Below are positions 3,109 to 63,081 of a stretch of DNA of 64,000 nt, in pieces. How positions within the stretch are numbered: the first letter of the stretch is position 1; each line of letters opens with the position of its first letter. The DNA comes from Phyllobates terribilis (taxonomy: Eukaryota): assembly GCF_046119375.1 (NCBI RefSeq), contig NW_027362772.1, positions 303,242,001 to 303,306,000 of the forward strand, given 5' to 3'. The notes below the pieces were generated by a model. That model saw only the letters and a program-made list of their open reading frames with translations. It ran no database searches and had not been told where the DNA came from. The translations under genes and the position numbers were made by a program.

Positions 3109-7349
<4,241 letters not shown>

Positions 7350-8779: not shown

Positions 8780-9179
8780 ATCACGCTGCAGAACATACCG
8801 GAAACCCCCCACAAGATCCGCCGTGTACCGGGAACACGGCACAGGACGCGCCGTGCACCGGGAACACAGCACAGGACGCGCCGTGCACCGGGAACACAGC
8901 ACAGGACGCGCCGTGCACCGGGAACACAGCACAGGACGCGCCGTGCACCGGGAACACAGCACAGGACGCGCCGTGCACCGGGAACACAGCACAGGACGCG
9001 CCGTGTACCGGGAACACAGCACAGGACGCGCCGTGTACCGGGAACACAGCACAGGACGCGCCGTGTACAGGGAACACAGCACAGGACGCGCCGTGTACAG
9101 GGAACACAGCACAGGACGCGCCGTGTACAGGGAACACAGCACAGGACGCGCCGTGTACCGGGAACACAGCACAGGACGC
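8780..9179 (+). repeat. 30-bp minisatellite (CCGTGTACCGGGAACACAGCACAGGACGCG), left part of an array split by element A
   Basis: About 13 copies; interrupted at 9179 and resumes at 14186. Confidence 0.95.
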
Positions 9180-9602
9180 TGTTATGATCTGCTACAGAAA
9201 CTAAGGAAAGGCAGGAGATCTGTCCCTACAATAGAACTAAACTAGATCCCTACGATGTAACGGGGAACCTGATCCTGCGATCAGACCCGCTAAAGTCCTC
9301 GGCTAGTCTGAACGCAGACCTATAGATGTGGGGGAGGGATCCCTACAAGATCTAGGGACTGGGATAAGTTGGACACCTCCTAGCAGAAATAGTAGCAGTC
9401 AAAGACAAACACACAACAAAAAGCATAGAGGTCAGAAGACCTAGCAAAACTAACAGAGAACGGCAATAGAGCAACAAGCTAGCTCAACAGTAGTAAATAC
9501 AAATGAAGTCCAGCAAAGCCAGGAGGGCGGAGCCGGATTAAATAGGCAAAAATGGTCATGTGACCAGCAAACTAAAAAAAAACTAACAGGAGAGTTGTAA
9601 CA
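9180..9602 (-). repeat. 3' LTR of element A
   Basis: Direct repeat of 13763-14185; the PPT is at ~9603-9620. Confidence 0.96.
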
Positions 9603-9614
9603 GTACCCCCTCTT

Positions 9615-12600
9615 CTAAGAGGATCCTCCGGATCCCCTAGGCCCAGGCTTACCAGGAAACCTGTGAAACGCTCGGACAAGTCTGGGGGCAGAAACATCAT
9701 CCGCCCTCACCCATGAGTTATCCTCAGGTCCGAAACCCTTCCAAGCGACGAGATACTGCAAACTCCCTCTATACCGTCTAGAATTTAGGATGCGGGAAAT
9801 TTCATATTCCCCGTCCTTCACCACCGGAGGAACAGTGGCAGAGGCGTCACCATCCGACACATCAGCTTTTTTCAACAGAGAAACATGAAACACCGGATTA
9901 ATCCTCCAGGACGTAGGAACCTCCAGCCTAACAGCAGATTGGTTAACTATCTGAAGTACCTTAAAGGGCCCTACGAACTTGGGACCCAATTTTTTAGAAG
10001 GAATCCTCATTCGCAGATTCCTAGAGGACAACCAAACCATGTCACCAACAGCAAACAAAACCTCTTGCCGTTTCCTATCAAAGTACCTCTTAGATTTTTT
10101 GTTAGCCTCCTGAAGATTACCACGCACATCCGTCCAAACTCTCTCCAAATCACCGGAAAAACTCTCCTCCTCAGGCACAGCCGAAACCAATTTGGAAAAT
10201 GACCCAAAAGACGGATGTCTCCCAGAACAACAAAAAAAAGGCGAACACCCAGCAGAAGAGGATGTATGGTTGTTAAGAGCAAATTCAGCAAGTGGCAGAA
10301 ACTCAGACCACCCCTCTTGATTGTCTGCCACAAAACAACGCAAGAACTGCTCAACATCCTGGTTCTTCCTTTCTGTCTGGCCATTAGACTCAGGATGATA
10401 TCCGGATGAAAACGACAAATGAACTCCCAACCTGTCACAAAAGGCACGCCAAAAACGAGCCACGAACTGAGGTCCCCTATCAGAAACAATGTCAGTAGGA
10501 ACACCATGTAGTCTAACAATTTCCTTGACAAAGGCCTTGGCGAGTGTCTTAGCGCAAGGCAGTTTGATGAAGGGAACCAAGTGACACATCTTGCTAAAAC
10601 GGTCCACGACCACCCAGATGACCGTGAAACCTTCAGAGGGAGGAAGGTCAGTAATAAAGTCCATAGCCAGATGTGTCCAAGGTGCACTAGGAACCTCCAG
10701 AGGGCAAAGCAACCCCGCAGCAGGAACATGCGAAGACTTGGATCTAGCACACACAGTACATTGGCGCACCCACTTAATGACTTCCTTCTGCCATCCAGGC
10801 CACCAAAAACTGCGACCCACAAGTCTCTTGGTCTCAGAAATTCCTGGATGACCTGCCAACCGAGACTCATGACACTCAACAAACAAATCTCTCCTAAAGG
10901 TCCTAGGCACAAACAACCTCCCATGGGGAGTGTTAGATGGGGCATTCTCCTGTGCTTTAAGAATCTCATCCTCCAAAACGGAGTCCAAAGCAGCAATCAC
11001 AACACCTTCTTGTAAAATGGTCTCCTCTTCCTCCTCAACACCGACCATGGGAGAAAAGCTGCGAGACAAAGCATCCGCTTTAACATTCTTGGTACCCGGG
11101 ATGTAAGTAACGGAAAAATTAAACCGCGAGAAAAAAAGTGCCCACCTAGCCTGACGGGCATTCAAGCGCTTGGCAGCATCAAGATAGATCAGATTTTTAT
11201 GATCAGTGAAAACCTGAACGGGAAATTCAGCACCTTCCAAGAGGTGACGCCAGTGTTCAAATGCGAGTTTAATCGCCAGCAATTCCCGATTACCAATATC
11301 GTAATTAAGTTCAGTCTCGGAAAATTTTTTTGAAAAAAAGGCACAGGGATGTACTCCATCCTTGTTTTCCTGAGACAACACCGCACCAACCCCCACCGAA
11401 GAAGCATCAACCTCAACCAAAAACGGCTTAGTCACATCAGGCTGCATAAGGATGGGAGCAGAGCTGAACCTCTCCTTGAGATACACAAAAGCTTCAATGG
11501 CCTCAGAAGTCCACTGAACCGCATTAGCACCTTTCCTGGTGAGATCGGTCAGCGGTTTGACAATAATAGAAAAAATTTTTATGAATTTTCTGTAATAATT
11601 GGCGAAACCCAAAAACCTCTGTATCGATTTCAAACCAATAGGCCTAGGCCATTCCTGCACAGCCTGAACCTTAACCGGATCCATCTCAAAACCTTCACTG
11701 GAGATAATGTAGCCCAAAAAACTAATTCTCTGTACAGCGAACTCACATTTCTCCAGCTTAGCAAAAAGCGAATTGTCCATTAATAACTGTAATACCTCAC
11801 GTACGCTCCGCCAATGAGACTCCAGATCCGGCGAATAAATCAAAATGTCATCCAAATACACAACCACATTTTTGCCGATTAAAGGTCTAAGGATGTCATT
11901 AATAAGATTCTGAAAAAATGCTGGAGCATTGGTAAGACCAAAAGGCATAACCAGATTCTCAAAATGACCCACAGGAGTGTTAAAAGCAGTCTTCCATTCA
12001 TCACCCTCCTTCATGCGCAACAGATTGTATGCCCCCCGGAGATCAATTTTAGAGAACCACTTGGCCCCCACTAACTGGTTAAACAAATCGGGAATCAATG
12101 GCAGTGGGTAAGGATTGCGTACAGTAATTTTATTAATCTCACGAAAGTCCAGACAAGGGCGTAAACCGCCATCTTTTTTTTTCACAAAAAAAAAACCAAC
12201 CGCCACAGGAGACTTGGAAGGCCTAATATGACCAGCGGCCAAGCTCGTCTGTATGTATTCCTCCAAAGCCTTTCTCTCAGGAATAGTAAGATTAAATAAA
12301 CGACTCTTAGGAAGAGTCGCTCCAGGGACAAATTCAGTGGTACAATCATAGTCTCTATGGGGAGGCAAAACCTGCGACTCCTCCTCAGAAAAAACTCTCC
12401 AAAAATCCTGAATAGGTACAGGCAATTCCCCTCTATCCACAGCAGCAATGCGCCCGTTACAACACTTGTCATAACACTTAGGGCTCCAGGATTTAATTTC
12501 ATTGGTAGACCAATCCAGCACAGGATTGTGCAATTTTAACCAGGGTAACCCCAATATTACTGGAGAAGGCAAATTATCCAATACCACCAAATCCAAATTC

Positions 12601-13682
12601 TCTTGATGAATACCATTAATAGTGAGGGGAAATTCACAGACCTTGTGAGTAACACTCTTCAAGGGAGAGCCATCGACAGAAACCACAGCAATAGGGGATG
12701 ACAAAGTTTTAGGTTCTAATCTAAGTTTTTCCAAGAATCCCCCATCAATCACATTCAGAGTAGATCCACAATCCACAAATACCCGAAATTCAATTAATTC
12801 ATCCTGAGCAGCAGTAGTGGCAGATAGGAATACCCCCTTAGAATTTAAACAGGCAATACGGGCATGACTGACCATTTTTTTTTCTTTCTTCTTACGAAGT
12901 ACACAGCTCTTAATAAAATGACCAGAACTTCCGCAATAGAAGCACAAGCCTTCAGAAAGTCGGCGGTCTTTTTCTTGAGAGCGGGGTGCCATCGCCCCAA
13001 TTTCCATCGGCTCTCCACTGTCAGCACAGAACCTCTCAGGACTCGAAGCTGACATAGCAGAGGATTTGCTCTCATTAACCCTTGCACGCAGTCTCCTGTC
13101 CACCCGTATAGCTAATTGCATTGCCTCCTGCAAGTTTCCAGGTGTGGGATAAGCAATCAGTAAATCCTTAACCCTTTCACCTAGCCCTGCCAGAAACAAG
13201 CTTTTCAAAGCAGAATCGTTCCACCCTACCTGGGCAGACCACCGACGGAAGTGAGAACAATATTTTTCCACATTACCTGATCCCTGCCTCAAACGTCTTA
13301 ATTCAGACTCAGCAGATGAGACACGATCAGGATCATCGTACAACAAACCCAAAGCAGAAAAAAAACTATCCACTGAACTAAAGCACGGATCACTAGGATG
13401 GAGAGAGAAGGCCCATCCCTGAGGATCTTTGCGCAAAAGTGACATTATGAACCCTATGCGCTGTGATTCATCACCAGAGGATCCGGGTCTCAAACGAAAA
13501 TATAATAGACAAGCATTTTTAAAAGAAAAAAAATCTTGTTGTTCGCCAAAAAATAGATCAGGCAGACGTACCTTAGGTTCCACAAAATGCGCTCCAGAAC
13601 AGCTACTCATGTGTTGTTGGAGCTTGGTCACCTCCAGAGAGAGTCCCTGCAAGTGTTGAGCCAAATCTTGCACCGAGATCAT
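9615..13682 (-). CDS. Gag-Pol polyprotein, 1355 aa (Gag with CCHC knuckle, aspartic protease, RT, RNase H, integrase, chromodomain)
   Basis: CFYCGSSGHFIKSC; VFVDCGS; YLDD; DASSVGVGAVL; H..H..CTVC; [13 protein letters not shown]; EYEISRIL...YLVAWKGFGPEDNSW. No stops or frameshifts. Confidence 0.97.
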   Translation of the reverse strand: MISVQDLAQHLQGLSLEVTKLQQHMSSCSGAHFVEPKVRLPDLFFGEQQDFFSFKNACLLYFRLRPGSSGDESQRIGFIMSLLRKDPQGWAFSLHPSDPCFSSVDSFFSALGLLYDDPDRVSSAESELRRLRQGSGNVEKYCSHFRRWSAQVGWNDSALKSLFLAGLGERVKDLLIAYPTPGNLQEAMQLAIRVDRRLRARVNESKSSAMSASSPERFCADSGEPMEIGAMAPRSQEKDRRLSEGLCFYCGSSGHFIKSCVLRKKKEKKMVSHARIACLNSKGVFLSATTAAQDELIEFRVFVDCGSTLNVIDGGFLEKLRLEPKTLSSPIAVVSVDGSPLKSVTHKVCEFPLTINGIHQENLDLVVLDNLPSPVILGLPWLKLHNPVLDWSTNEIKSWSPKCYDKCCNGRIAAVDRGELPVPIQDFWRVFSEEESQVLPPHRDYDCTTEFVPGATLPKSRLFNLTIPERKALEEYIQTSLAAGHIRPSKSPVAVGFFFVKKKDGGLRPCLDFREINKITVRNPYPLPLIPDLFNQLVGAKWFSKIDLRGAYNLLRMKEGDEWKTAFNTPVGHFENLVMPFGLTNAPAFFQNLINDILRPLIGKNVVVYLDDILIYSPDLESHWRSVREVLQLLMDNSLFAKLEKCEFAVQRISFLGYIISSEGFEMDPVKVQAVQEWPRPIGLKSIQRFLGFANYYRKFIKIFSIIVKPLTDLTRKGANAVQWTSEAIEAFVYLKERFSSAPILMQPDVTKPFLVEVDASSVGVGAVLSQENKDGVHPCAFFSKKFSETELNYDIGNRELLAIKLAFEHWRHLLEGAEFPVQVFTDHKNLIYLDAAKRLNARQARWALFFSRFNFSVTYIPGTKNVKADALSRSFSPMVGVEEEEETILQEGVVIAALDSVLEDEILKAQENAPSNTPHGRLFVPRTFRRDLFVECHESRLAGHPGISETKRLVGRSFWWPGWQKEVIKWVRQCTVCARSKSSHVPAAGLLCPLEVPSAPWTHLAMDFITDLPPSEGFTVIWVVVDRFSKMCHLVPFIKLPCAKTLAKAFVKEIVRLHGVPTDIVSDRGPQFVARFWRAFCDRLGVHLSFSSGYHPESNGQTERKNQDVEQFLRCFVADNQEGWSEFLPLAEFALNNHTSSSAGCSPFFCCSGRHPSFGSFSKLVSAVPEEESFSGDLERVWTDVRGNLQEANKKSKRYFDRKRQEVLFAVGDMVWLSSRNLRMRIPSKKLGPKFVGPFKVLQIVNQSAVRLEVPTSWRINPVFHVSLLKKADVSDGDASATVPPVVKDGEYEISRILNSRRYRGSLQYLVAWKGFGPEDNSWVRADDVSAPRLVRAFHRFPGKPGPRGSGGSS

Positions 13683-13762
13683 GATGGAAAACTGGAGGTC
13701 TTTCCCCAGAGAAAATCCTTTCCCTTTTTTTTTTTTTTTTTTTTTTTTATGGCTGGACTTAC

Positions 13763-14185
13763 TGTTATGATCTGCTACAGAAACTAAGGAAAGGCAGAAG
13801 ATCTGTCCCTACAATATAACTAAACTAGATCCCTACGATGTAACGGGGAACCTGATCCTGCGATCAGACCCGCTAAAGTCCTCGGCTAGTCTGAACGCAG
13901 ACCTATAGATGTGGGGGAGGGATCCCTACAAGATCTAGGGACTGGGATAAGTTGGACACCTCCTAGCAGAAATAGCAGCAGTCAAAGACAAACACACAAC
14001 AAAAAGCATAGAGGTCAGAAGACCTAGCAAAACTAACAGAGAACGGCAATAGAGCAACAAGCTAGCTCAACAGTAGTAAATACAAATGAAGTCCAGCAAA
14101 GCCAGGAGGGCGGAGCTGGATTAAATAGGCAAAAATGGTCATGTGACCAGCAAACTAAAAAAAACCTAACAGGAGAGTTGTAACA
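13763..14185 (-). repeat. 5' LTR of element A (TATTTAA on - at 14127-14121)
   Basis: Direct repeat of 9180-9602, upstream of gag. Confidence 0.96.
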
Positions 14186-14672
14186 GACGCGCCGTGTACC
14201 GGGAACACAGCACAGGACGCGCCGTGTACCGGGAACACAGCACAGGACGCTCCGTGTACCGGGACCACAGCACAGGACGCGCCGTGTACCGGGACCACAG
14301 CACAGGACGCGCCGTGTACCGGGACCACAGCACAGGACGCGCCGTGTACCGGGACCACAGCACAGGACGCGCCGTGTACCGGGAACACAGCACAGGACGC
14401 GCCGTGTACCGGGAACACAGCACAGGACGCGCCGTGTACCGGGAACACAGCACAGGACGCGCCGTGTACCGGGAACACAGCACAGGACGCGCCGTGTACC
14501 GGGAACACAGCACAGGACGCGCCGTGTACCGGGAACACAGCACAGGACGCGCCGTGTACCGGGAACACCCCACAGGATCCGCAGTGTACCGGGAACACCC
14601 CACAAGACCCTCCGTATACAGGGAAAACCCCACACGACCCTCCGTATACAGGGAAAACCCCACAGGATCCGC
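14186..14672 (+). repeat. 30-bp minisatellite, right part of the split array
   Basis: About 16 copies; the outer units revert to a CACCCCACAGGATCCG-type variant. Confidence 0.95.
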
Positions 14673-16035
14673 CACTTTGGAGATGTCTGACCCCTGCTTT
14701 CACAAGATTTCCAGTGTTAATCCCTTCTGCTCTCTGGTTTATGACTGGACAGAGATAAGTGGCTCTACATCGGCGCCGCTCGTCGTTCTTCCTCCTGTCC
14801 TGACATAAGAAAGAAATGTTGCATGAGCATAAAGGAGGCATTTATTGTATCTGGCTTTTGTGGACAGATGAAGACCGCAGCTGCTGCAGAACTTTGATTT
14901 TCCCCATTATTCAATCTATGATTAACCTGAAGCTCTTTAAAAAAAAAAAAAAATGAGGTTCTGCAGCAGCTTAAGTGAGTAGTTAATGAATAATGTGCCT
15001 CTTATAAATTAAGATAACAGATAAGTGAGAGAGTTATTATGTTAATCTCCCAATAATTTTCCCGGCAGGCGAATCCCTCTTGTTCTGGTCTCTCTCGGGG
15101 CTGGGTCCTTGTGGGCCTGTGGTGGCGCCGGGGCAGGGTGATTGGGTTACTTTTGGCTTTGCTCCTCTCAGGAGTATTCATGGAGGAGTAATTTGAGCTC
15201 GGGGGCGTCAGCTGCAGGGTTTTGTTCAGGGTGTGAAGATATTCCTCATATTGGGGTCAGGGTGGTATCTGCAATGTCCAGCGAGTCACAGGATTAAGTG
15301 TCTGCCAGGGATGAAACTGGAGACCATTCTCTGCAATTTGTTTAGACATTGGTGGAAAAAAAAAGTATTTTTCAGAATCCCAATGCCAACTTCTGATGGA
15401 GACATGCTGCTATTTGTAGTTCTACCATCGCAGTAGATGTTTAGCCAAGCAGGCAATTTACTAATAAACTTTTTTTTTTTTTTTATCATTTTCAGTATCA
15501 CTGCTTACTGTAAGTGAATGAGAAAGTTTCCATTCAGAGGCAGTGAACTTGTATGTAGCTATTCCTGCTCTCTGCTAAGAAATAGATACAATTGTATCTA
15601 GTGTAGACAATACTGGACTGATACATTGTAGCAAACCATCAGTGAGAGCTGTGCAGCCGGTGATGATGGGTTTAGCTGATGTCTACACTGATGTCCACTT
15701 CTTAGTGCAGTGTAAGGACAGGTATAGACGGACCCCCCAACACCCGGACTGACCGCGGGTCTCCTAATCCGTATTTACACCCTCCTATATGCTTATGAGT
15801 TTGTAAGCTCGGGTCAGCCGGGCATTACTTTCCATATACAGACCACAAAGCACAACTGTCTGAACCCGGCCTAAAACTAGATATACTAAATTTGGCTCGA
15901 CCTGCTGCTTTTCCACCTATGGGGTGTGGGGAGGGGGTCACCTCTCCATTGAAGTATATATAGACAGATGCAGGTCTTCGGTTTAGGATCCACAGCTCCA
16001 TATCTGCACCTATCAGGTGTTTATAGCATGTGTCA

Positions 16036-19000
16036 TGTTATGGGTCCGAGTGGTGGTACTTCTATGCTTTGGTGCAAGGAGGGACCAGAGGTGCATGACT
16101 AAGTACCTACTCGGCCTGACCAAGGTCGCACGGCGGCTCAATCGACTCCGTGAACCAGGTAGGCACCGAGCAGAGGGACCAGGTGTCACTCTGGGACCGA
16201 CCTTGTGTGAGAGCAGGTGACTCCCACAGGTCAGATGGCAGGAACTGACCAGTACAGCAGATGAGCATGGCTGGAAGGCTGACGGGTGGTCTGGGTAGAC
16301 AACCTAGCGGGCACGACAAGTAACAGGCAGGTGCTCTGGGTAGGCAGACTGGCGGGCACAACAGGTAACAGGCAGGTGCTTCCAGGTAAGCAGGCTGGTG
16401 AGCACGGCAGGTAACTGGCAGACAGACTGGCGAGCAGGACTGACTGGCTGACTGGCGGGCAGGACTGACTGGCAGACTGGCGGGCAGGACTGACTGGCAG
16501 ACTGGCGGGCAGGACTGACAGGCAGCGGGACCTGAGGGTTGAAGCAAGTGTTAGCACATGGAACAACAACCATTGCACAGGAACCTCCATATTGGAGGAG
16601 GTGCTTTAAATAGGGGAAGTCCTCTGGCCATTGGCCGGGGACTTATTAGGACGGCGCGCGCGGCCCCTTTAAGAGGGAGGGAAGCGCGCGTGCCCTAAGC
16701 ACAGTGCCCGGGAAGCTGTGCGCGGTGCGCACCACAGTAGCTGCAGGACAGGAGCCGGAAGACGCCGGACCAGGGCCGTGGCGGTGAGGGGAACGGCGTC
16801 TCTGCCTCTGCTTCCTGCTACAGTCACCCCCCCCTTTATGCCCCCCCTTCTTTAAGCCCGAGAGAAATTTTTTAAGAAGATGAGGGACATGAATGTTCTC
16901 CCTGGGTTCCCAAGACCTCTCCTCCAGGCCCTTCCAATCCACAAGAAAGTAAATCTTTCCTCTTACCCTCTTGGTGGCCAAAATGTTTTCTACCTCAAAG
17001 ACGTCCTCAGCGGAGACTGGAGCTGGAGGGGTACCTGGATCGTCAGAGAAGGAATTAAGGACAACAGGTTTGAGAAGGAATACATGAAAGGAGTTGGGAA
17101 TCCGTAAGGTGACCGGGAGTTTCAGCTTGTAAGCCACGGGATTGATTTGTTTCAGAACCTCGAACGGACCGATGAACCGCGGATCCAACTTATAGGAAGG
17201 TATCTTGAGACGGACATGTTTGGAGGAAAGCCAGACTTTGTCTCCCGGACGTAATTGAGGAGGATCCAGACGTCTCTTATCAGCATGTCTCTTCATCCGC
17301 TCGGAGGACTGAAGAAGTGCAGATCTAGTGTCTTCCCAAATTGCCGAAAATTCGCTGACAAGAGACTCCGCGGCAGGATTGTCCACAGAAGAGGAGATGG
17401 GAAACGGAATCCGGGGGGTGTTGACCGTAGACCACAAAGAACGGCAATTTAGTAGAAGACTCGCTCTCACGGTTGTTATAGGAGAACTCAGCCCAGGGCA
17501 GGAGCTCAACCCAATCGTTATGACGAGCATTGACGAAGTGCCGGAGAAAACTGTTAAGGGCCTGGTTGATGCGTTCCACTTGACCATTGGATTGAGGGTG
17601 ATAAGCAGAGGAAAAATCCAAGGAGATGTCCAGCAGCTTGAACGTAACTCTCCAGAAGCGCAGAGTGAACTGAACCCCGCGATCAGACACATTGTGGAGG
17701 GGTAGGCCGTGAAGACTGAAGATGTGATGGATGAAGTCCTTGGCCAGCACAGATGCAGACGGAAGACCAGTCAGAGGGATTTAGTGGGCCATTTTAGAGA
17801 AGCGGTCAGCGACCACCCAAATGACTGTAAAACTGGCAGAGACAGGGAGATCCGTAATGAAATCCATAGCTATGTGTTGCCACGAAGCGGAAGGCACGGG
17901 AAGAGGGAGGCGATGGCCAGATGGAAGGTGCCGGGGAACCTTGTTACGGGTACAGGAGGAACAAGCTGCGACGAAGTCCGCAACATCCTTGCGCAGGGAA
18001 GACCACCAGTAATGTCGGGTGATGAGCAGAAAGGTCTTCCTCTGACCAGCATGGCCGGCTAGTTTGGATGAATGGCCCCAGAGTAGAACCTTCTTACGAT
18101 CTGGAACCGCCACAAAAGACTTACTTGGTGGAAGAAGAGACAGGTCAAACGGAGCCACAGTCATTACTTTGGAGTGGTCGATGATATGTAGAGGCTCCTC
18201 CTCTTGGTCAGTGGACAGGAACGAGTGGCATAAAGCGTCAGCTTTAATGTTCTTGTCCGCCGGGCGGTAATGCAGAGTGAAGCAGAATCGGGCAAAGAAT
18301 AGAGACCACCTGGCCTGACGCGGATTAAGTCTTTGGGCGTTTTGTAAATAAGTCAGGTTTTTGAGGTCAGTGTAGATGACCACCGGGTGCAGAGCCCCCT
18401 CCCATAGGTAACGCCACTCCTCCAGCGCCAATTTGATGGCTAGCAGTTCACGATCTCCTATGGAGTAGTTGCGCTCGGACGAGGCGAAGAGCTTGGAGAA
18501 GAAGCCGCAGGTTACCATTCTCCTGGACGGGGATTTCTGGGTGAGCACCACTCCGGCTCCCGAGGAGGATGCATCAACCTCCAGGAAGAACTGCTTGTTG
18601 CAATCCGGACGGTGCAGCACTGGGGCGGAGGAGAAGGCTTGTTTTAGGGAGACGAAGGCCTCCTCCGCTTCGGAAGTCCATTCCCTGGGATTTGCTCCCT
18701 TACGGGTGAGCGCGGAGATGGGAGCGGTCCGGGAGGAGAAATGAGGGATAAAGAGGCGGTAATAATTTGTGAAGCCCAGAAATCGCTGAATCGCCTTCAA
18801 CCCCTCCGGTCGGGGCCACTTTAAGACGGCATAAACCTTCTCGAGATCCATCCGCAGACCAGTCTCGGAGATAATATAGCCCAGGAACGGAAGGGAAGTC
18901 TGCTCGAAAAGGCATTTCTCAAATTTTGCGTATAGGCGATTCTGCCAGAGCTTTAGCAGAACTTGATGAACATCCCTCCGGTGTGTTGGCAGAACCAGAA

Positions 19001-21749
19001 ACAAAACCAAGATATCGTCCAGGTACACCACCACACAAGAATACAGGAGATCACGGAAGATGTCGTTAACCAGCTATTGGAAAACGGCTGGAGCATTACA
19101 GAGACCAAAGGGCATTACGCGGTATTCGTAGTGACCGTCCCGGGTGTTGAATGCCGTCTTCCACTCGTCTCCCTGGCGGATCCAGACCAAATTGTACGCC
19201 CCACGAAGATCGAGCTTGGTGAAGATCTTCACGCCTTTAAGGTGGTCGAACAGCTCCGAGATGAGAGGCTGGGGATACTTATTCTTGATGGTAATCTGGT
19301 TAAGACCCCTGTAATCAATACAGGGACATAGTGAGCCGTCTTTCTTCTTAACAAAGAAGAATCCTGCTCCAGCCGGGGAGGTAGATTTCTGGATGAATCC
19401 CCTAGCAAGATTCTCTTCTATGTACTCAGACATGGCCCGGGTCTCAGCCGGCGACAAGGGGTAGATACGCCCGCAGGGAGGAGAGGAACCAGGTAGCAGG
19501 TCGATTGGGCAATCATACGGCTTATGAGGTGGAAGTGTCTCTGCCTCCTTTTTGTCGAAGACGTCCGCATAGGTCCAGTAGGGTGCCGGCAGACCAGGTA
19601 GATTAGCCGGAGTAGACAGGGGTCGAGCTGGACGAACCGGAACCAGACAGGACTCGTGGCATTCCTGCCCCCAACGGAGCACTTCACCTGACCTCCAATT
19701 CAGGACAGGTTCATGTCTCTGTAACCAGGGTAGACGAAGCAAGAGGGAGTGAGAGACCGGACAGCACATGAAAGGAGATCTTCTACGAGTGCAGCATTCC
19801 CACCTGAAGGGTTACAGACTCTGTGACGAGCAAGATGGTCTCCGGAAGAAGTCTCCCATCAACGGAAGCGACCTCCAACAGTTCAGCCAGACGTATGGTA
19901 GGAATCTGATACCGCTCCACAAGAGCCTGAGAAATGAGATTCCCAGCGGCTCCAGAATCCAGGGGGGCAGTCTCAAAGAAACGGGTCTCACCACTGAAAA
20001 TGGAAACAGAGTCAAGGACGGAGAGGATTTACTCTTGCCTAGGACGACCTCTCCGAGCGGTCCTAGACACTGGAGTTTCCTGGCTTCACCGGACAGGAAC
20101 GGATCTGATGCTCTTTACTGCCACAATAGAAGCAACTCCCCTCGGCTCGACGCGTCTCCTGGCGAGATTTGACCATCTTGGTTTGGTCAATTTGCATAGG
20201 TTCAGGCGAGCATGCCCGGAGAATTGCTGGTTGGGAGGCAGGCTTTTGGAATACAGGAGCGAGACCCGGAAGTCTTCTCTCCCGGTTAGTCTCCTTAGCT
20301 CGTTCCAAAAAACGGATGTTAATCCGGGTAGCTAATGACTCCAGGTCGTCCAGGGTGGAAGGGCTGTCACGACCTGCTAGCTCATCCTTGATCTGTCCGG
20401 AAAGGCCCTCCCAGAAGGTGGACACCAGGGCCTCGTTGTTCCAGGCAAGCTCTGATGCGAGGGTACGGAAATGTATGGCATATTGGCCCACGGTTAGACT
20501 CCCTTGGCGGAGACGGAGAAGTGAAGAGGCAGTAGAAGTTTTTCATCCGGGCTCATCGAAGACCTTTTGGAAGGCAGTGAGGAAAGCCGGAAGATCGGAC
20601 ACCAGGGGATCCCCTCTTTCCCACAGAGGGTTTAGCTATGCCAATGCCTCCCCGGTGAGGTGAGACATGATGAACGCCACCTTGGCCCGGTCAGAGGTGA
20701 ACTGGTATGCCAGGAGTTCAAAGTACAGCGTGCACTGATTTAGGAAGCCTCGACATAAGACTGTGTCACCACCAAAACGGGGAGGTGCAGAGAGCCGGGG
20801 TCCAGAGCCGGGTGCCATAGCGCCAGTAGGTTGAGGTGCAGCCGGAGCGGGTGCCGCTCGGCTAGAGACGGACACAGACGGGGTGGACAGCGTGTCCAGG
20901 CGAGAGTTGACTGACCGCAGATAGGACAGGATAGTCTCCTGTTGGGATCTCTGACATGAGACCTCCTGGTAGAGGTCAGAGAGTGAAGGAGCCTGGGGGC
21001 CACCGGGTTCCATGGCCTGTGCAAACTGTTACGGGTGGAACCTCTGTGCTTCGGTGCAAGGAGGGACCAGAGGGGCGTGACTAAGTACCTACTCGGCCTG
21101 ACCAAGGTCACACGGCGGCTCAATCGACTCCGTGAACAAGGTAGGGACCGAGCAGGTGAACTAGGTGCCACTCTGGGACCGACCTTGTGTGAGAGCAGGT
21201 GACTCCCACGGGTCAGATGGCAGGAACTGACCAGTACAGCGGATGAGCACGGCTGGAAGGCTGACGGGTGGTCCGGGTAGACAGGCAGGCGGGCACAACA
21301 GGTAACAGGCAGGGGCTTCCAGGTAAACAGGCTGGCGGGCACAACAGGTAACAGGCAGGTGCTTCCAGGTAGGCAGGCTGGTGAGCATGGCAGGTAACTG
21401 GCAGGCTGACTGGCAAGCAGGACTGACAGGCGGGCAGGACTGACAGGCAGACTGGCGGGCAGGACTGACAGGCAGCGGGACCTAAGGGCTGAAGCAAGTG
21501 TTAGCACACGGAACAACAACCATTGCACAGGCACCTCCATATTGGAGGAGGTGCTTTAAATAGGGGAAGTCCTCCGGCCATTTGCCGGGGACTTTTTAGG
21601 ACGGCGCCCTAAGCACAGTGCCCGGGAAGCTGCGCACGGTGCGCGCCACAGTAGCTGCAGGACGGGAGCTGGAAGACGCCGGACCAGGGCCATGGCGGTG
21701 AGGGGAACGGCGTCTCTGCCCGGCAGAAGGCAGAGACGCCAATGCTACA
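16036..21749 (-). mobile_element. Decayed Ty3/gypsy chromovirus, element B
   Basis: LTRs at 16036-16822 (3') and 21027-21749 (5'); TSD TGTCA/TGTCG (one CpG-type change); PPT at ~16823-16850; internal gag-pol broken by stops and frameshifts. Confidence 0.93.
16646..21013 (-). pseudogene. Disrupted gag-pol of element B
   Basis: Fragments: gag MEPGGPQ (20636-21013) and CFYCGSKEHQIRSC (20063-20491); LDSGAAG protease; RT (19074-19769, 17781-19034, YLDD); integrase (17325-17750); chromodomain VFEVENIL...LVDWKG. Confidence 0.92.
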
Positions 21750-52767: not shown

Positions 52768-53828
52768 TGTAGCATCGGCGTCTCTGCCCCGTACTAGGCA
52801 GAGACGCCGTCCCTCTCACCTCCCCGCTCCTGGCGCGGCGTCCCCCAGCGCTTCTCTCCCCGCTGCTTCCGGCACGTGCTCCTTCCCCGGCAGTGTGCTT
52901 AGGGCGCGCGCGCGTGCTCCCCCTCTCTTAAAGGGACCGCGCGCGCCGTCCTAAGGAGTCCCTGGGCCAATTGCCGGAGGACCTCCCATATTTAAGGCAC
53001 CTCCTCCAAAATGGAGGTGCCCGAGCAATGTTGTTGCAAAGCCTTCACTCTGCTTCAGCCCTCAGGTCCCTTTACCAGTTACCTGCCAGTCACCTGCCAG
53101 ATTCCTGCTTGTTACCTGCCAGTCACCTGCCAGATTCCTGCTTGTTACCTGCCAGTTACCTGCCTGATTCCTGCTTGATAACTGCCTGATATCCGTTTAC
53201 CTGCTTGCAAGCCTGCGGTCCGACGGTCTGCTTTCCTACACCTGTCAGTCTGTCTATGGACCAGCCTGCTCGCTCACCTGGGAGCGCTCATCTGCTACCT
53301 GTCTGCTAGCCTACCTGGAGGCTCTGCCGTCACTTGCCGTGACCACCTGCCTGTCCAGAGACTCTTGCCTGCTCACCTGGGAGCGCTCACCTGCTACCTG
53401 TCTGCTAGCCTTCCTGGAGGCTCTGCCGTCACTTGCCGTGACCACCTGCCCGTCCAGAGACTCTCGCCCGCTCACCTGGGAGCGCTCACCTGCTACCTGC
53501 CTGCTAGCCTACCTGGAGGCTCTGCCGTCACTTGCCGTGACCACCTGCCCGTCCAGAGACTCTCGCCCGCTCACCTGGGAGCGCTCACCAGCCACCTGCC
53601 TGCTGTCCTTCTACCCAGAGACTGTCCCTGTCACTTGCCGTGAGTACCTGTCCTTTTACCCAGAGACTGTCCCTGTCACTTGCCGTGACTACCTGCCCCT
53701 CTACCCAGAGACTGTCCCTGTCACTTGCCGTGACTACCTGCCCGTCTTCCCTGGGAGCCACCCGCTTCCTTACATGGACTGCCCCCTTGTATAGTTGCAC
53801 AGAGGTTCCACCTCCCAGACCCGTTACA
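52768..53828 (+). repeat. 5' LTR of element C, 1061 bp (TATTTAA at 52989)
   Basis: Direct repeat of 62169-63081, with internal 99-bp and 45-bp tandem units. Confidence 0.95.
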
Positions 53829-53841
53829 GTTTGCTCTGGCC

Positions 53842-54767
53842 ATGGAACCCGGTGGCCCCCAGATCTCCGATCTGCACCAGGAAGTCTTGCGTCAGAAAAC
53901 TCAGCAGGAGGTGGTACTGTCCTATCTACGGTCCGTTAACTCTCGTCTAGGCGCATTGTGTGACTTGTCTATGTCTACCTCTGGTCCAGCCATGCCCATT
54001 CCTGCGGTACCGCAATCCAGTCCCTTCATGGTACCCGACTATGGACCTCGGCTTCTGGCACCTCCACGCTTTGCCAGCGAACCTACTTTAGCTCGGGGTT
54101 TCATAAACCAGTGCACCCTGCACTTTGAGCTATTGGCATACCAGTTCATCTCCGACCGAGCCAAGGTGGCCTTCATCATGTCCCATCTTACTGGGGAGGC
54201 ACTGGCATGGCTAAATCCCCTGTGGGAGAGAGGGGATCCCCTGGTGTCCGACCTGCCGTCTTTCCTCGCTGCTTTCCGGAAAGTCTTCGATGAACCTGGA
54301 CGGAAAACCTCTTCTGCCTCCTCACTGCTACGTCTCCGCCAAGGGAGTCTCACCGTGGGCCAATATGCCATACGGTTCCGCACCCTCGCTTCTGAGCTTG
54401 CCTGGGAAAATGAGGCTCTGGTGTCCGTCTTCTGGGAGGGTCTTTCCGGTCGAATTAAGGACGAGTTAGCTGGTCGGGACATTCCTACCACTCTGGATGA
54501 CCTGGTGTCACTAGCTACCAGGATTGGCATTCGGTTCCAAGAACGTGCCAAAGAGACTACCTGGGAGACTTTTCTTGCTCTGCTCCTACTTCCCTGAGAC
54601 CTGCCTCTCAATCAGTCACTCCGCGGGCGCCCTCGCCTGAACCTATGCAGATCGACCAGACCAAGATGGTCAAATCTCGCCGAGCCGAGGGAAGCTGTTT
54701 CTATTGTGGCAGTATGGAGCACTTCATCCGTTCCTGCCCGGAGAAGCCGGGAAACGCCAGTGTCTAG
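53842..54767 (+). pseudogene. gag of element C, frameshifted near 54570-54600
   Basis: MEPGGPQ...; after the shift, EPMQIDQ...CFYCGSMEHFIRSCPEKPGNASV*. Confidence 0.88.
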
Positions 54768-57196
54768 GACCGCTCGGAGAGGTCGTCCTAGACAAAAGTA
54801 AGCCCTCTCCGTCTCTGACTTTACCGGTCTCTATTGCTTGGGGAGAAAACCGTCACTTTGAACTTGCCCACCTGGATTCTGGAGCTGCTGGAAACCTCAT
54901 CTCCCAGTCTCTGGTAGACAGATACCGTATTCCCACCAAGTCCCTGGCTGAACCATTATCAGTCGCCTCCGTGGATGGAAGACTTCTCTCGGAGACCATC
55001 CTGCTCGTCACTGAACCCATAACCCTGCAGGTGGGAATGCTGCACTCTGAGGAAATCTCATTCCATGTGTTGTCCGGACTTTCTCACTCCCTGTTGCTAG
55101 GTCTACCTTGGCTCCAGACACACGAACCCATATTGAACTGGCGATCCGGTGAAGTACTCCGATGGGGTCCAGACTGCCATAGGACCTGCCTGGTTCCGGT
55201 CCGCCCAGTTCGCCCTCCGCCTACTCCAGCTAATTTACCAGGTCTCCCGGCTTCTTACTGGCCCTATGCGGACGTCTTCGGTAAGAAGGAAGCAGAGACG
55301 TTGCCACCCCATAGGCCATATGACTGCCCGATCGACCTGGTACCTGGCGCCACTCCTCCCCGTGGGCGTATCTACCCGTTGTCTGCAGCCGAGACCCGGG
55401 CCAGGTCTGAGTACATTGAAGAGAATCTGGCTAGGGGATTTATCCGGAAATCTACCTCCCCGGCTGGAGCCGGATTCTTCTTTGTCAAAAAGAAAGACGG
55501 CTCGCTACGCCCCTGTATTGACTATAGAGGACTCAATCAGATCACGGTTAAAAATAAATACCCCCTTCCGCTCATCTCTGAGTTATTTGATCGTCTTAAA
55601 GGCGCCAGGATCTTCTCCAAGCTGGATCTACGTGGAGCTTATAACCTGGTCCGTATCCGTCAGGGAGACGAGTGGAAAACAGCATTTAATACCCGGGACG
55701 GACACTATGAGTACCGTGTGATGCCCTTCGGTCTCTGCAATGCTCCCGCCGTCTTCCAAGAACTGGTCAACGACATCTTCCGTGACCTTCTTTACTCCTG
55801 CGTGGTGGTATACCTGGACGACATCTTGGTCTTCTCTCCGGATCTTCCCACACACCGGAGGGATGTTCGTCAGGTCCTGCTTAGGCTCAGGCAGAACCAC
55901 CTCTATGCTAAATACGAGAAGTGCCTTTTTGAGCAGACCTCTCTTCCTTTCTTGGGCTATGTTATCTCCCAGACAGGCTTGCGAATGGATCCCGAGAAGC
56001 TCTCTGCTGTCCTAAAGTGGCCCCGTCCGGAGGGCTTGAAGGCGATACAGCGATTCCTGGGCTTCGCTAATTACTATCGTCTCTTCATTCCTCACTTCTC
56101 GTCACGGACTGTGCCCATATCTGCGCTCACCCGTAAGGGAGCAAATCCCAAGGTATGGTCATCCGAAGCTGAGGAGGCCTTCCTTTCCCTGAAACAAGCC
56201 TTCTCCTCTGCCCCTGTGCTGCACCGTCCGGACTGCAACAAACAGTTCTACCTGGAGGTTGATGCTTCCTCCTCTGGAGCCGGAGCGGTGCTCACCCAGA
56301 AGTCTTCCTCCGGGAGAATGGTAACCTGCGGCTTTTTCTCTAAAATCTTCTCCTCCTCTGAGCGCAATTACTCCATAGGAGACCGAGAACTGCTTGCCGT
56401 TAAATTGGCGCTGGAGGAGTGGCGTTACCTGCTTGAAGGGGCTCTATACCCGGTGATCATCTATACGGATCACAAGAACCTGGCATATCTCCAAAATGCC
56501 CAGAGACTTAATCCACGTCAAGCCCGGTGGTCTTTGTTCTTTGCCCGCTTCGATTTCATCCTTCATTTCCGCCCGGCGGACAAAAATGTCAAAGCTGATG
56601 CCTTGTCCCGATCCTTCCTGTCCTCCGACCAAGAGGAGGAGCTTATGCACATTATCGACCCCTCCAAGGTGATGAATGTGGCCCCCTTGGATTTGACTCG
56701 TCTTCCACCCGGCAAGACGTTCGTGGCACCTCCAGACCGTGAGAGGGTTCTTCGCTGGGGTCATTCTTCTAAACTAGCTGGCCATGCCGGCCAAAAGAAG
56801 ACCTTCCTACTCATTTCCCGGCATTACTGGTGGTCTACCCTGCGTAAGGATGTGGTAGACTTCGTCTCTGCCTGTTCATCTTGTGGCCGCAACAAAATTC
56901 CCAGACACCAGCTGGTCATCTCCTGCCGCTTCCCATACCTGTTGCCCCGTGGCAACACATCGCTATGGACTTCATTACCGATCTTCCTGTCTCTGCCGGG
57001 TGTACTGTCATTTGTTTGGTCGCAGACCGCTTCTCTAAAATGGCCCACTTCATTCCCCTGCCTGGTCTTCCGTCTGCACCTGAGCTGGCTAAGGACTTTA
57101 TTCGCCATATCTTCCGTCTCCATGGCCTACCCCTCCACATCGTGTCGGATCGAGGGGTTCAGTTTACCTCACGCTTCTGGAGAGCCACATGTAAAC
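54749..57196 (+). pseudogene. pol of element C (protease, RT, RNase H, integrase N-half), in the -1 frame relative to gag; frameshift near 56910; cut by CR1
   Basis: LDSGAAGNL, YLDD, DASSSGAGAVL, HSSKLAGH...CSSC; after the shift, MDFITDLP and SDRGVQF. Confidence 0.92.
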
Positions 57197-57389
57197 AGGG
57201 GAGGAGTCCTGAGGAGATAATTTGCATATTCCCACTGCATTTTGGGGTAAGTGAAGAGTCTCCGCGAGCTCAAAGAACACTGGATTTTGGCTGTTGGAGC
57301 TGAAAAGAGGACATCAGTAAACCGCGCGCCTGCCGGCGCACGCATATTGAAGCTTTTTTCACTGTTTTCAGAACATTAACAGTAAGAAC

Positions 57390-58400
57390 ATGGAAGAGTC
57401 CAGGAGCCATTTGGTGAGCTGCATATCCTGCTACATGTTCACAGACTTGCCAGTGGAAAAGCCAAACTTCACATGCCAGAAATGCAAGCTTGTGTCCCTG
57501 TTGGAGGAAAAGTTGCGAAATCTAGAAGAGAGGTTAACTACCTTGAAAATCATTAAGGAAGGTGAAGAGTTCTTAGACAGAGCAGAATTATCTCTTCATG
57601 ATTCAGAAAGAGAAGAAATTCTCTCTGCACCTGACGAAACAGAGGAATGGAAGCATGTGACCCAGAGAAGCAGGAGGATCGAGAGGCAGTCAGCACCCAT
57701 ACTGCTCAGGAACCAGTACCAGGCTCTCACGCAGGAGAACCATGAAGAAATACAGCAAGATAAGACTTTGCCAGCAATGAATAACCTTGTAAGCCCTCAG
57801 AATCCTCCTGGATGGAGAAAGAAGAATGTTGTGAAGAAATAACGGAGAGTGGTGGTCATGGGGGATTCCCTGTTAAGAGGAACAGAGGCCGCTATCTGCA
57901 GACCAGACATAACCTCAAGAGAAATGTGCTGTCTTCCAGGAGCAAAAATTACAGATGTGTCTGACAGGATATCAAGACTCTTCAGACCTACAGATCACTA
58001 CCCATTCCTGCTAATACATGTGGGGACAAATGACACCGCAAGAAAGGACCTGGAAACCATCTGCAGTGACTTTGAAGACTTAGGCAAGAAAGTGAAAGAA
58101 TTGGGAGCGCAGGTGGTCTTCTCATCCATCCTCCCAGTGGATGGCCATGGAACAATGAGGTGGAATAAGATTCTACAGGTGAACAACTGGCTACGTCGAT
58201 GGTGCCGTCAACAAGGATTTGGATTTCTGGATCACGGGATGAATTACCTATACGATGGACTACTTGCTAGAGATGGGGTGCACCTTACGAAGACTGGAAA
58301 ACATGTATTTGGAAGTCGCCTTGCTACACTCATCAGAAGAGCTTTATACCAGAACAATGTGGGAAGGGAAGCAAAAGGCCAGAAAAAGCCATACAGCTGA
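57390..58400 (+). pseudogene. CR1 ORF1 (CxxC motifs, coiled coil, SGNH/GDSL esterase) with one in-frame TAA at 57840-57842
   Basis: CISC...CQKC; LEEKLRNLEERL; VVMGDSLL, HVGTND and DGVHL esterase blocks. Confidence 0.9.
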
Positions 58401-58474
58401 CAAATACTATTGAGATCTCTGCTACTGGAAGTGGAAAAGAAGAACAAAGACAAAACAATTTAAATAATAAAAAT

Positions 58475-61262
58475 ATGGGAGGAAGAGAAACCAATCACAA
58501 ACTAAAATGTTTTTATACAAATGCACAAAGCATGGGCAACAAACAAGGAGAATTGGAACTACTAATGCAGGAAAAGGAATATGATGTCATTGGAATCACT
58601 GAAACTTGGTGGGACGATACACATGATTGGAATAAAAGGCTAAAAGGATACAACTTATTTGCAAGAAACAGACTTGATAAACGAGGAGGAGGTGTCGCAT
58701 TGTATGTTAGAAAAGCGTATATCTGCACAGAGATTGAAGCTTCAGAGACTGGGAGTTCTGTGGAAACTGTTTGGGTAAGAATACAAGGAGAGAACAACGG
58801 AAAGGACACCATTGTAGGCATTTACTACAGGCCACCTGGGCAAGATGAAGATATGGATGAACTCTTTATGTATCAAATGACCAAGTTCTCAAAAAAATAT
58901 GACGTAGTGGTCATGGGAGATTTCAACTATCCAGACATTTGTTGGGAATCTCTCTCAAGTAAAACTAACAGGTCAAGCAAATTCTTATCCTCTCTTGCTG
59001 ACAACTTTATCTTCCAAAAGGTAGGGGAGAAAACAAGGGGATCTGCTACTTTGGATCTAATCCTTATAAACAGGGAGGAAATGGTTGAGGAGGTAAAGGT
59101 GGCTGGGACCCTAGGAGGCAGCGATCATGCTATTATAGAATTTTGGATAACTAGAGGAGGAAGACATGTGAAGACTCAAACTTCAAGGTTAGATTTTAGA
59201 AAGGCAGATTTTAAGAGACTCAGAAAGAGAATAGGAGGGATCCAATGGCTGGATGTCCTTAAGGACAAAAATGTCCAGGAAGGATGGGAAATTTTTAAAA
59301 ATGAGATTCTCAAAGCACAATCGTTAACAATCCCGAAAAGTAGGAAGAATGGGAAGCATTTAAGGAAACCAGGATGGATGAACACAGAACTTAAACACAT
59401 GCTAAAAAAAAAGAAAGAAATGTTTATTAAATGGAAAGAGGGAGGCATATCTAAAGAAGATTATAATGCAGTCTGCAGATCCTGCAGGGCACGTATCAGG
59501 TTAGCTAAAGCTGACAATGAATTAAGGCTTGCAAGAGATGTCAAAAGCAATAAAAAAGGATTTTGGGGGTATGTCAAAAGTAAAAGAAAAGTCAAAGATG
59601 CTATAGGATTTTTACAGGATGAAAATGGAGAAATGGTAAGAGAGGATGTTGAGAAGGCCGAACTTTTTAATTCCTATTTTGCATCTGTTTTCTCTCAGAA
59701 AGAAAATGTAACATCAACTGATCTTCACTGTACTTTTAAAGGAATAGAGGAATCCAAGTTATCTGTAAACAGAAAGATTGTGAGGGAATATTTAGCTAAC
59801 ATAAATGAGTTCAAGTCTCCAGGTCCAGATGAATTACACCCCAGAGTACTGAAGGAGATTGTAGAAGAAATTTTAGAACCACTCTCCATAATCTTTGAAA
59901 ATTCTTGGAGAACAGGAGAAGTCCCAGAAGACTGGAGAAGAGCAAATGTTGTTCCTATCTTCAAAAAGGGGAAGAAGGTGGACCCAGGGAACTATAGGCC
60001 GGTGAGTCTGACTTCTATACCAGGAAAGATCTTTGAACAAATTATTAAACAACATGTATGTAAGTACATGGATAAGAATGAAGTGATTAACCAGAGTCAG
60101 CATGGGTTTGTAACTAACAAGTCATGTCAGACTAACTTAATTTCCTTCTATGACAGAATCACTGACTGGGTGGATCAGGGAAATGCTGTAGATATAGTAT
60201 ATCTTGACTTCAGCAAAGCATTTGACAAAGTATCTCACACCATCCTTATTGAAAAAATGACCAAGTATGCAACGGACCAGGCAACTGTTAGGTGGATTCA
60301 TAACTGGCTTAGTGATCGGACTCAAAGGGTGGTTGTAAATGGCTTCACATCCAGCTGGATGAATGTCTCAAGTGGGGTACCACAGGGCTCCGTCCTGGGA
60401 CCTGTATTGTTCAACATCTTTATCAATGATTTAGATGAAGGAATTGAGGGTAAACTGATTAAATTTGCTGATGACACAAAGCTAGGAGGGATAGCTAATA
60501 CTAGAGAAGAGAGAGAGGATTCAAAAAGACCTAAATAAACTGGAGCCGTGGGCAGCAACCAACAGAATGGTTTTTAACAGGGAAAAATGCAAAGTACTAC
60601 ATCTGGGCAATAAAAATGAAAAAAGCACATACAGAATGGGAGGAATAGAGCTAAGCAACAGTACATGTGAAAAAGACTTAGGTATACTAATAGATCATAG
60701 ACTGAACATGAGTCAACAGTGTGATGCAGCAGCAAAAAAGGCAAATACAATTCTGGGATGTATTAACAGAAGCATACAGTCTAGATCACGTGAAGTCATT
60801 ATCGGTCTTTACTCCTCTTTGGTCAGACCTCATCTGGAATACTGTGTACAGTTTTGGGCACCACATTTTAAAAAAGACATAGACAAACTGGAGCAAGTTC
60901 AGAGAAGAGCGACCAGAATGGTGACTGGTCTGCAAACCATGTCCTATGAGGAACGGTTGTAGGATTTGGGAATGTTTAGCTTGCAAAAAAGAAGACTGAG
61001 AGGAGACTTAATAGCTGTCTACAAATATGTCAAGGGCTGTCACATTGTAGAAGGATCATCTTTATTCTCATTTGCACAAGGAAAGACTAGAAGCAATGGG
61101 ATGAAACTAAATGGGAGGAGACACAGATTAGATATTAGAAAAAACTTTTTGACAGTTAGGGTGATTAATGAGTGGAACAGGCTGCCACGAGAGGTGGTGA
61201 GTTCCCCTTCAATGGACGTCTTCAAACAGAGGCTGGACAGACATCTGTCTGAGATGATCTAG
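58475..61262 (+). pseudogene. CR1 ORF2 (APE endonuclease and RT) with a frameshift near 60510 and a TAG at 60960-60962
   Basis: YTNAQS, GITETWW, MGDFN, SDH; [31 protein letters not shown]; C-terminal RRLRGDLI. Confidence 0.94.
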
Positions 61263-61348
61263 TGAATCCTGCTTTGAGCAGGGGGTTGGACCAGATGACC
61301 CAGGAGGTCCCTTCCAACTCTACCATTCTATGATTCTATGATTCTATG

Positions 61349-62328
61349 AACTGCTGGACGTCACCCTGGACTTCTCCTCCGCTTACCACCCTCAGTCCAA
61401 TGGTCAAGTGGAGCGGATCAATCAGATCCTTACCAGCTATCTCCGGCACTTTGTTAATGCCCACCATTCTGATTGGGTGGACCTCCTTCCTTGGGCCGAG
61501 TTCTCTTATAATAACCACGAGAGCGAATCCTCTTCCAAGTCCCCGTTCTTTATTGTCTATGGCCAGCACCTCCGGATTCCGCTCCCTGTCTCCGTTTCTG
61601 TGGACAACCCTGGTGCAGAGTCTCTTGTCAGCGAATTTTCTACTATTTGGGAGAGTACCAGGTCCGCTCTTCTTCTGTCCTCTGAGCAGATGAAGAGATA
61701 TGCTGATAAGAGACGTCTGGATCCGCCTCAATTCCATCCGGGAGACAAGGTTTGGCTCTCGTCCAAACATGTGCGGCTCAAAGTACCCTCCTTCAAGCTG
61801 GGCCCTCGATTCATCGGTCCCTTCGAAGTCCTCAGGCAAATTAACCCTGTGGCCTACAAATTAAAACTCCCGGCCACCCTACGGATTCCCAACTCCTTCC
61901 ACGTATCTCTCCTCAAACCCGTTGTCTTTAACTCTTTTTCCAATAATCCAGGTGCCCCTCCTGCTCCGGTTTCCGCTGATGACGTCTTTGAGGTAGAGAG
62001 TATTCTGGCCTCCAAGAGGGTAAGAGGAAAGACCTTTTTTCTGGTAGATTGGAAGGGGTTTGGTCCTGAGGAGAGAACTTGGAAACCCAGGGAGAACATC
62101 AACGCCCCGCTTCTCCTTGAAAAATTTCTTTCTGGCCAAAAAAAGAGGGGGCCTAAAGGGGGGGGTACTGTAGCATCGGCGTCTCTGCCCCGTTCTAGGC
62201 AGAGACGCCGTCCCTCTCACCTCCCCGCTCCTGGCGCGGCGTCCTCCAGCGCTTCTCTCCCAGTTGCTTCCGGCACGCGCTCCTTCCCCGGCAGTGTGCT
62301 TAGGGCGCGCGCGCTCCCCCTCTCTTAA
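61349..62328 (+). pseudogene. C-terminal half of the element C integrase plus chromodomain
   Basis: SSAYHPQSNGQVER, KLGPRFIGPF, VFEVESIL...LVDWKGFGPEERTW; the frame continues into the 3' LTR. Confidence 0.92.
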
Positions 62329-63081
62329 AGGGACCGCGCGCGCCGTCCTAAGGAGTCCCCGGGCCAATTGCCGGAGGACCTCCCATATTTAAGGCACCTC
62401 CTCCAAAATGGAGGTGCCCGAGCAATGTTGTTGCAAAGCCTTCACTCTGCTTCAGCCCTCAGGTCCCGTTACCAGTTACCAGCCAGTCACCTGCCAGATT
62501 CCTGCTTGTTACCTGCCAGTCACCTGCCAGATTCCTGCTTGTTACCTGCCAGTTACCTGCCTGATTCCTGCTTGATACCTGCCTGATATCCGTTTACCTG
62601 CTTGCAAGCCTGCGGTCCGACGGTCTGCTTTCCTACACCTGTCAGTCTGTCTATGGACCAGCCTGCTCGCTCACCTGGGAGCGCTCATCTGCTACCTGTC
62701 TGCTAGCCTACCTGGAGGCTCTGCCGTCACTTGCCGTGACCACCTGCCTGTCCAGAGACTCTCGCCCGCTCACCTGGGAGCGCTCACCTGCTACCTGTCT
62801 GCTAGCCTTCCTGGAGGCTCTGCCGTCACTTGCCGTGACCACCTGCCCGTCCAGAGACTCTCGCCCGCTCACCTGGGAGCGCTCACCAGCCACCTGCCTG
62901 CTGTCCTTCTACCCAGAGACTGTCCCTGTCACTTGCCGTGAGTACCCGTCCTTTTACCCAGAGACTGTCCCTGTCACTTGCCGTGACTACCTGCCCGTCT
63001 TCCCTGGGAGCCACCCGCTTCCTTACATGGACTGCCCCCTTGTATAGTTGCACAGAGGTTCCACCTCCCAGACCCGTTACA
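62169..63081 (+). repeat. 3' LTR of element C, 913 bp
   Basis: Direct repeat of 52768-53828 lacking one 99-bp unit, one 45-bp unit and 4 bp. Confidence 0.95.

Follow-up and report, generated by a model that had tools for sequence, protein, structure and literature searches.

Chromodomain LTR retrotransposons that probably prime themselves in Phyllobates terribilis, with self-primers and primer binding sites matched within families

Three chromodomain elements in the window

The window, a stretch of 64,000 nt from the genome of Phyllobates terribilis, contains three chromodomain Ty3/gypsy LTR elements, here called A, B and C (Table 1). All three encode reverse transcriptase (RT), RNase H, integrase, an SH3_Tf2-1 domain and a chromodomain, while Gag was detected in A and C. 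The domain order PR-RT-RH-IN with the chromodomain on the integrase, LTRs of the form TG...CA and target-site duplications identify them as chromoviruses. The LTR ends were fixed independently of any pairing, from LTR pairs and target-site duplications.

Table 1. Coordinates of the main features of elements C, B and A in the window
Feature	Positions	Strand	Remarks
C 5' LTR (TG...CA)	52768..53828	+	target-site duplication CTCCA
C TATA-like box TATTTAA	52989..52995	+	
C predicted self-primer GCCCGAGCAA	53019..53028	+	TATA+30; T|G at predicted start
C U5 7-mer, complement of 53843-53849	53804..53810	+	candidate flanking duplex
C spacer GT, 2 nt	53829..53830	+	mirrors AC preceding the 3' LTR
C PBS TTGCTCTGGC	53831..53840	+	one private change, 7th base
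Conserved C following the PBS of C	53841	+	no complementary G before primer
C Gag frame, PF03732 and PF19259	53842..54597	+	
C Pol (protease, RT, RNase H, integrase zinc finger)	54641..57220	+	broken downstream
LINE within C integrase	57185..61350	+	esterase-like ORF, endonuclease, RT
C integrase tail, SH3_Tf2-1 and chromodomain	61342..62328	+	
C polypurine tract and TAC ahead of 3' LTR	62155..62168	+	
C 3' LTR	62169..63081	+	identical primer decamer at 62416-62425
B 5' LTR	21027..21749	-	TATA 21562-21556, primer 21532-21523
B PBS	21015..21024	-	10/10 with primer; ATG at 21013
B 3' LTR	16036..16822	-	ends approximate; first primer base altered
A 5' LTR	13763..14185	-	TATA 14127-14121, primer 14097-14089
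A PBS	13752..13760	-	9/9 with primer
A single Gag-Pol frame with chromodomain	9615..13808	-	
A 3' LTR	9180..9602	-	

The 5' LTR of C closes with CA at 53828, and its primer binding site (PBS) complements the predicted self-primer at 9 of 10 positions. The ATG at 53842 starts a Gag frame of 251 codons. The TATTTAA box (52989), primer, PBS and ATG of C lie exactly where the earlier note on this DNA had placed them. A primer start at TATA+30 and a 2-nt GT spacer are common to A, B and C. The chance of finding such a complement at a fixed place is about 5e-6 for A, 9e-7 for B and about 1e-5 for C.

The earlier note had treated the three elements as three LTR families. Element A is indeed separate, but B and C share about 80% DNA identity and fall in one clade of the RT-RH tree; the independent lineages in the window therefore number two, not three. 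A gag ATG right after the PBS is confined to the lineage of B, C and the related F types, whereas in A the first in-frame ATG lies 70 nt beyond the PBS.

In a quick, midpoint-rooted RT-RH tree of 70 rows, in which 32 of the 120 listed homologues were hand-chosen and three rows labelled E were nested A or C insertions, A, B and C grouped with fish and amphibian relatives (99 SH-aLRT), apart from the fungal, algal and plant rows. They most likely belong to the Tf1/sushi group. The tree contained no named Tf1/sushi or V-clade element, so this membership is drawn from the domains, the host group and the type of PBS. The PBS has its complement in a segment of the LTR located at the predicted U3/R border, as in the Tf1/sushi group.

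In yeast as well as in vertebrates, members of the Tf1/sushi group are reported to have self-primers (PMC6317226, PMC4600332, bioRxiv 2022.12.06.519325). Fission yeast is where self-priming was demonstrated, and in vertebrate relatives it is reported to be implicated on sequence grounds (PMC4600332). It is also reported for vertebrate chromoviruses (PMC6317226; bioRxiv 2022.12.06.519325, citing Butler et al. 2001), as we propose here. Tf1 and Tf2 of Schizosaccharomyces pombe and Tj1 of S. japonicus are described as chromodomain Ty3/gypsy elements without a tRNA PBS too, in which the PBS just past the 5' LTR is complementary to the predicted RNA 5' end, as here (PMC7175516, PMC4600332). In Tf1 the first 11 bases are reported to pair with the PBS and RNase H to cut after base 11 (PMC7175516); the duplex has 9-10 bp in the present elements vs 11 in Tf1.

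Some other features of the window were recorded. Element A is inserted in a 30-bp tandem array (8676-14766) with the target-site duplication GCGTC, and related arrays occur at 25.9-29.3 kb on the other strand. A Tc1/mariner transposase frame (DDE_3) is located at 5893-6876 on the minus strand. Between the TATA box and the primer, overlapping the predicted start, there is an inverted repeat of 9 bp in C (52996-53021) and of 8 bp in B (21555-21529).

Primer types and pairing across the genome

The B/C junction pattern with any 10-mer gave 19,355 matches in the 10.6-Gb genome. Among the nearest relatives of C, drawn from 29 other loci (one without a PBS match and one without a primer), 23 of the 27 copies with both parts located paired at 10/10 positions. 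Perfect pairing was also found in 27 of 30 unselected copies of the C family and in 27 of 30 copies of family A, the window copy counted. The 9/10 pairing described for C in the earlier note is real for the window copy, which carries seven private letters across 1,744 columns, and is due to decay of this copy alone. Because the mismatch is private to its PBS, the number of compensated pairs that distinguish B from C is two, one at position 4 and one at position 6. The compensatory swap at position 6 noticed before was thus correct, but it is not a single one.

The PBS variant of the window copy was found in 44 of the approximately 19,355 junctions, in mixed subfamilies, and none of 29 located primers matched it; a sublineage carrying this variant was rejected on these grounds. 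A CpG variant of the PBS occurred 452 times, with a matching primer in two of 29 copies, one of them from a separate subfamily. These uncompensated single-copy mutants indicate that inserted copies decay independently on both sides. The check suggested in the earlier note, covariation of the two decamers, would mislead if run on all copies: covariation was observed between subfamilies but not among inserted copies. The 5' primer of one locus (L014) complements the PBS variant of window C. Descent of window C from this locus, the one candidate parent, would have proved copying directly, but it was rejected, as the two share no rare letters and the locus ranked 24th of 29 by distance. The transcribed part of the C LTR (53100-53750) contains expanding tandem units, so that between the TATA box and the LTR end some copies have about 490 nt and others up to 1,460 nt, with the pairing still kept.

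Pattern searches based on the polypurine tract and on the PBS revealed further families. Altogether 12 primer types were detected genome-wide, each complementary to its own PBS, and wherever a primer was seen to differ between families, the PBS had the complementary change. This supports the claim that the PBS is tied to the LTR of its own element and not to a fixed tRNA-matching sequence. Type H is represented by one element, with its primer located in the 3' LTR only, and for type B both primer and PBS were read in the window copy only. All four possible combinations of positions 4 and 6 were present in the B/C/F lineage, each with a matching PBS, and in clade E all four combinations of positions 6 and 7. 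In type B0, 14 of the 16 copies that were located carried T at position 6 of the primer and nine were perfect, and type F' displayed a swap at position 10. In D, E and H the pairing can reach into one spacer base. The geometry, stated before to be identical, holds for A, B and C but not genome-wide, as clade E has TATA+31/29.

Clade E is a separate clade with 1,608 matches. Our sample comprised 70 of the first 100 matches, the last 40 favouring rarer classes, and 18 of the 70 were dropped for a missing or gapped promoter, leaving 52 copies. Primer position 6 paired with PBS position 4 in 45 of the 52 (25 in shuffles) and primer position 7 with PBS position 3 in 44 (23 in shuffles), with shuffles that ignore descent; crossed positions gave no signal in the same copies. 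Across 130 variable columns, primer 7 was the top partner of PBS 3 and primer 6 that of PBS 4. In an all-against-all scan the two true pairs ranked 3rd and 10th of 8,265, level with unrelated pairs diagnostic of subfamilies. The weight of the covariation evidence lies in the family-level pattern rather than in these column statistics.

The F and F' elements (L393:4094-8098; also L168, L392, L394, L397 and L398), which made up most of 29 loci read from a pattern with 6,858 matches, are flanked by LTRs some 1.9 kb long; their interior of 2 kb contains a Gag-like frame and, after it, repeats. In none of the eight tested was an RT match found. Although apparently non-autonomous, these elements possess primer types of their own.

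A search for more families by Gag gave plant-like Gag on small contigs. The best Retrotrans_gag matches were restricted to small unplaced contigs (L171-L200) and resemble plant Athila-type Gag, suggesting foreign DNA in the assembly.

RNA folding and the keeping of the pairing

The natural stretch from the primer to 45 nt past the PBS was folded for 12 copies. The mean probability of the primer:PBS helix was at least 0.84 in eight copies and 0.5 in one, and near zero in three, including the mismatched C of the window, in whose fold an alternative helix buries the AUG region. Tf1 is reported to need two further duplexes around the central one (bioRxiv 2022.12.06.519325). A 7-bp helix between U5 and the start of gag (53804-53810 with 53843-53849) is preserved by almost every B/C copy. 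F types show a swap of this helix, where U5 GGTTCC[AG] with TGGAACC is replaced by GGAA[TC]CA with TGGTTCC in nine copies and the second Gag codon is altered. By duplex energy, the cognate flanking pairs were not consistently best and had z-scores near 0, except in three of four A copies. Of the Tf1 'pretzel', which combines two flanking duplexes with the central one, the central duplex is supported here, and the single swap in the U5 helix may point to a flanking one.

The observed anatomy, complementarity, compensation between families and independent decay of inserted copies make it likely that A, B, C and their relatives prime themselves as Tf1 does, and that the pairing is kept by copying together with the loss of poor primers. 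The start site, cleavage, priming and primer-to-PBS copying are the predicted part of this scheme. The RNA would start at the G of TATA+30, its 5' end of 9-10 nt would fold onto the PBS, and the RNase H of the element would cut the RNA, freeing the primer. The 2-nt spacer would give cDNA ends of the form AC-TGT...ACA-GT, which integrase could trim. The primer would then be copied into the plus-strand PBS. A primer change inherited via the 3' LTR would enter both LTRs, and in the following cycle about half of the progeny would have it in the PBS too, and elements with poor pairing would fail to prime.

In HIV the primer is copied into the PBS during plus-strand synthesis (PMC4549124). The Tf1 cDNA is reported to carry a copied PBS, about half of it keeping the copy as single-stranded DNA, and the Tf1 primer is probably copied in plus-strand synthesis too (PMC11042837). 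By analogy, primer-to-PBS copying is plausible in the present elements. If it occurs, compensatory pairs would arise without a second selected mutation.

The predicted primer-first intermediate, in which both LTRs already have a variant primer while the PBS is still the old one, is the state of the young copy L025, in which the LTRs are alike at 265 of 266 positions. The same arrangement was found in the older copies L418 and L429. All three vary at CpG, so that double decay is possible. Among the 20 elements checked for a 3' LTR, 13 gave an LTR-like match, one of which (L402) probably came from another element. No direct trace of copying was detected among the PBS mutants, as their matching primers numbered 0/29 and 2/29.

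The base following the PBS may also bear on copying. It was C in 34 of 34 copies of A (where the next base varies), 54 of 54 of C, nine of nine of D, three of four of F and the single H, although copies of one family are not independent. In clade E it was C in 58 of 70 copies, nine of the 12 exceptions being at TG, and in F' in nine of 13, about five rows there having other spacers and probably not being true junctions. Immediately before the primer, T or C was found in most copies and G in some of the F' type. For B, C and F the C could belong to the context of the start codon; in A, D, E and H no ATG adjoins the PBS. A C that RT would add opposite the cap, as in cap-dependent cDNA tailing, may explain the conserved base. 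We tentatively propose, as a real possibility about which considerable doubt is in order, that the primer writes its own site: a capped primer would be copied cap included, the pair would drift in a self-correcting manner, and the C would be fixed opposite the m7G cap.

The earlier note had inferred that selection acts on the pairing. Self-priming would then hold, with each pair restored by a second independent mutation and compensation due to selection only, which we regard as unlikely. The U5 helix, which is not copyable from the primer, is also swapped in the nine F-type copies, and one mismatch abolishes the predicted helix in window C, as selection would have it; however, the U5 swap is one event and the flanking duplexes do not beat shuffles overall. 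Moreover, copying of the primer into the plus strand is a standard step (PMC4549124; reported for Tf1 in PMC11042837), and for the conserved C that follows the PBS the genome offers no base to pair with. The inference of the earlier note is supported in part: the PBS is tied to the LTR of its own element, while the compensation could come from copying of the primer into the PBS. Selection must still remove elements unable to prime, and copying cannot account for the swap in the U5 helix.

Other explanations and significance

It is improbable that the pairing is a structural helix, for packaging or for control of Gag translation, and that priming occurs otherwise. The helix adjoins the AUG in B, C and F, and the alternative fold of C buries the AUG region, which would suit a role in translation. 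However, A, D, E and H, which have no adjoining AUG, show the helix in the same place and with equal length; its partner starts at TATA+30, and a gap of 1-2 nt separates the PBS from the LTR end, the point at which minus-strand synthesis has to start.

Priming by a host tRNA or tRNA fragment, with the LTR match as a by-product, is very improbable. The earlier note had named PBSs matching tRNA 3' ends as evidence against its reading, and none of the 12 family PBS types begins with TGG. One base earlier, TGG was found at 13 of the approximately 19,355 B/C junctions, all point mutants of the family PBS. The tRNA search gave 63 matches, of which 30 were read and yielded one isotype, tRNA-Lys(TTT); it is with 29 sequences of this sole isotype that internal fragments were compared, a scope that leaves some room for tRNA fragments, and the longest shared word was 7 nt. 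Under this explanation each of the twelve PBS sequences would need a tRNA as well as a match to its own LTR. Two large clusters of tRNA matches are located at C1:816.9-817.9 Mb and C11:574.1-575.8 Mb, and the loci read there were tRNA-Lys(TTT) only.

Chance or shared descent alone is hardly credible, for although descent inflates the column statistics and B and C are close relatives, the fixed-place probability is at most 1e-5 per element and all family-level primer changes seen are complemented in the PBS.

Self-priming as in Tf1 is already a known mechanism for the group, and what is new here is further members with good comparative support: this genome has junctions of the B/C type numbering about 19,000 and of the E type about 1,600, and 12 types in which primer and PBS match. 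In the literature searched, no family-level primer/PBS covariation and no amphibian case was found, and the available text of PMC5341516, PMC3035444 and PMC3601003 has nothing on compensation; earlier primary papers may already discuss primer copying or the following C.

In tRNA-primed retroviruses such as HIV and SIV, the PBS is inherited from the primer (PMC4549124). There an unchanging host tRNA serves as primer and draws the PBS back to a single sequence, whereas in the present elements the primer is encoded by the element, and primer and PBS could therefore drift together. If the primer does write the PBS, this would account for the conserved C and for a single genome having 12 matched types of primer, and non-autonomous relatives could then have private primers. 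Compensatory changes between primer and PBS need not mean selection on RNA structure, since the one can be copied into the other.
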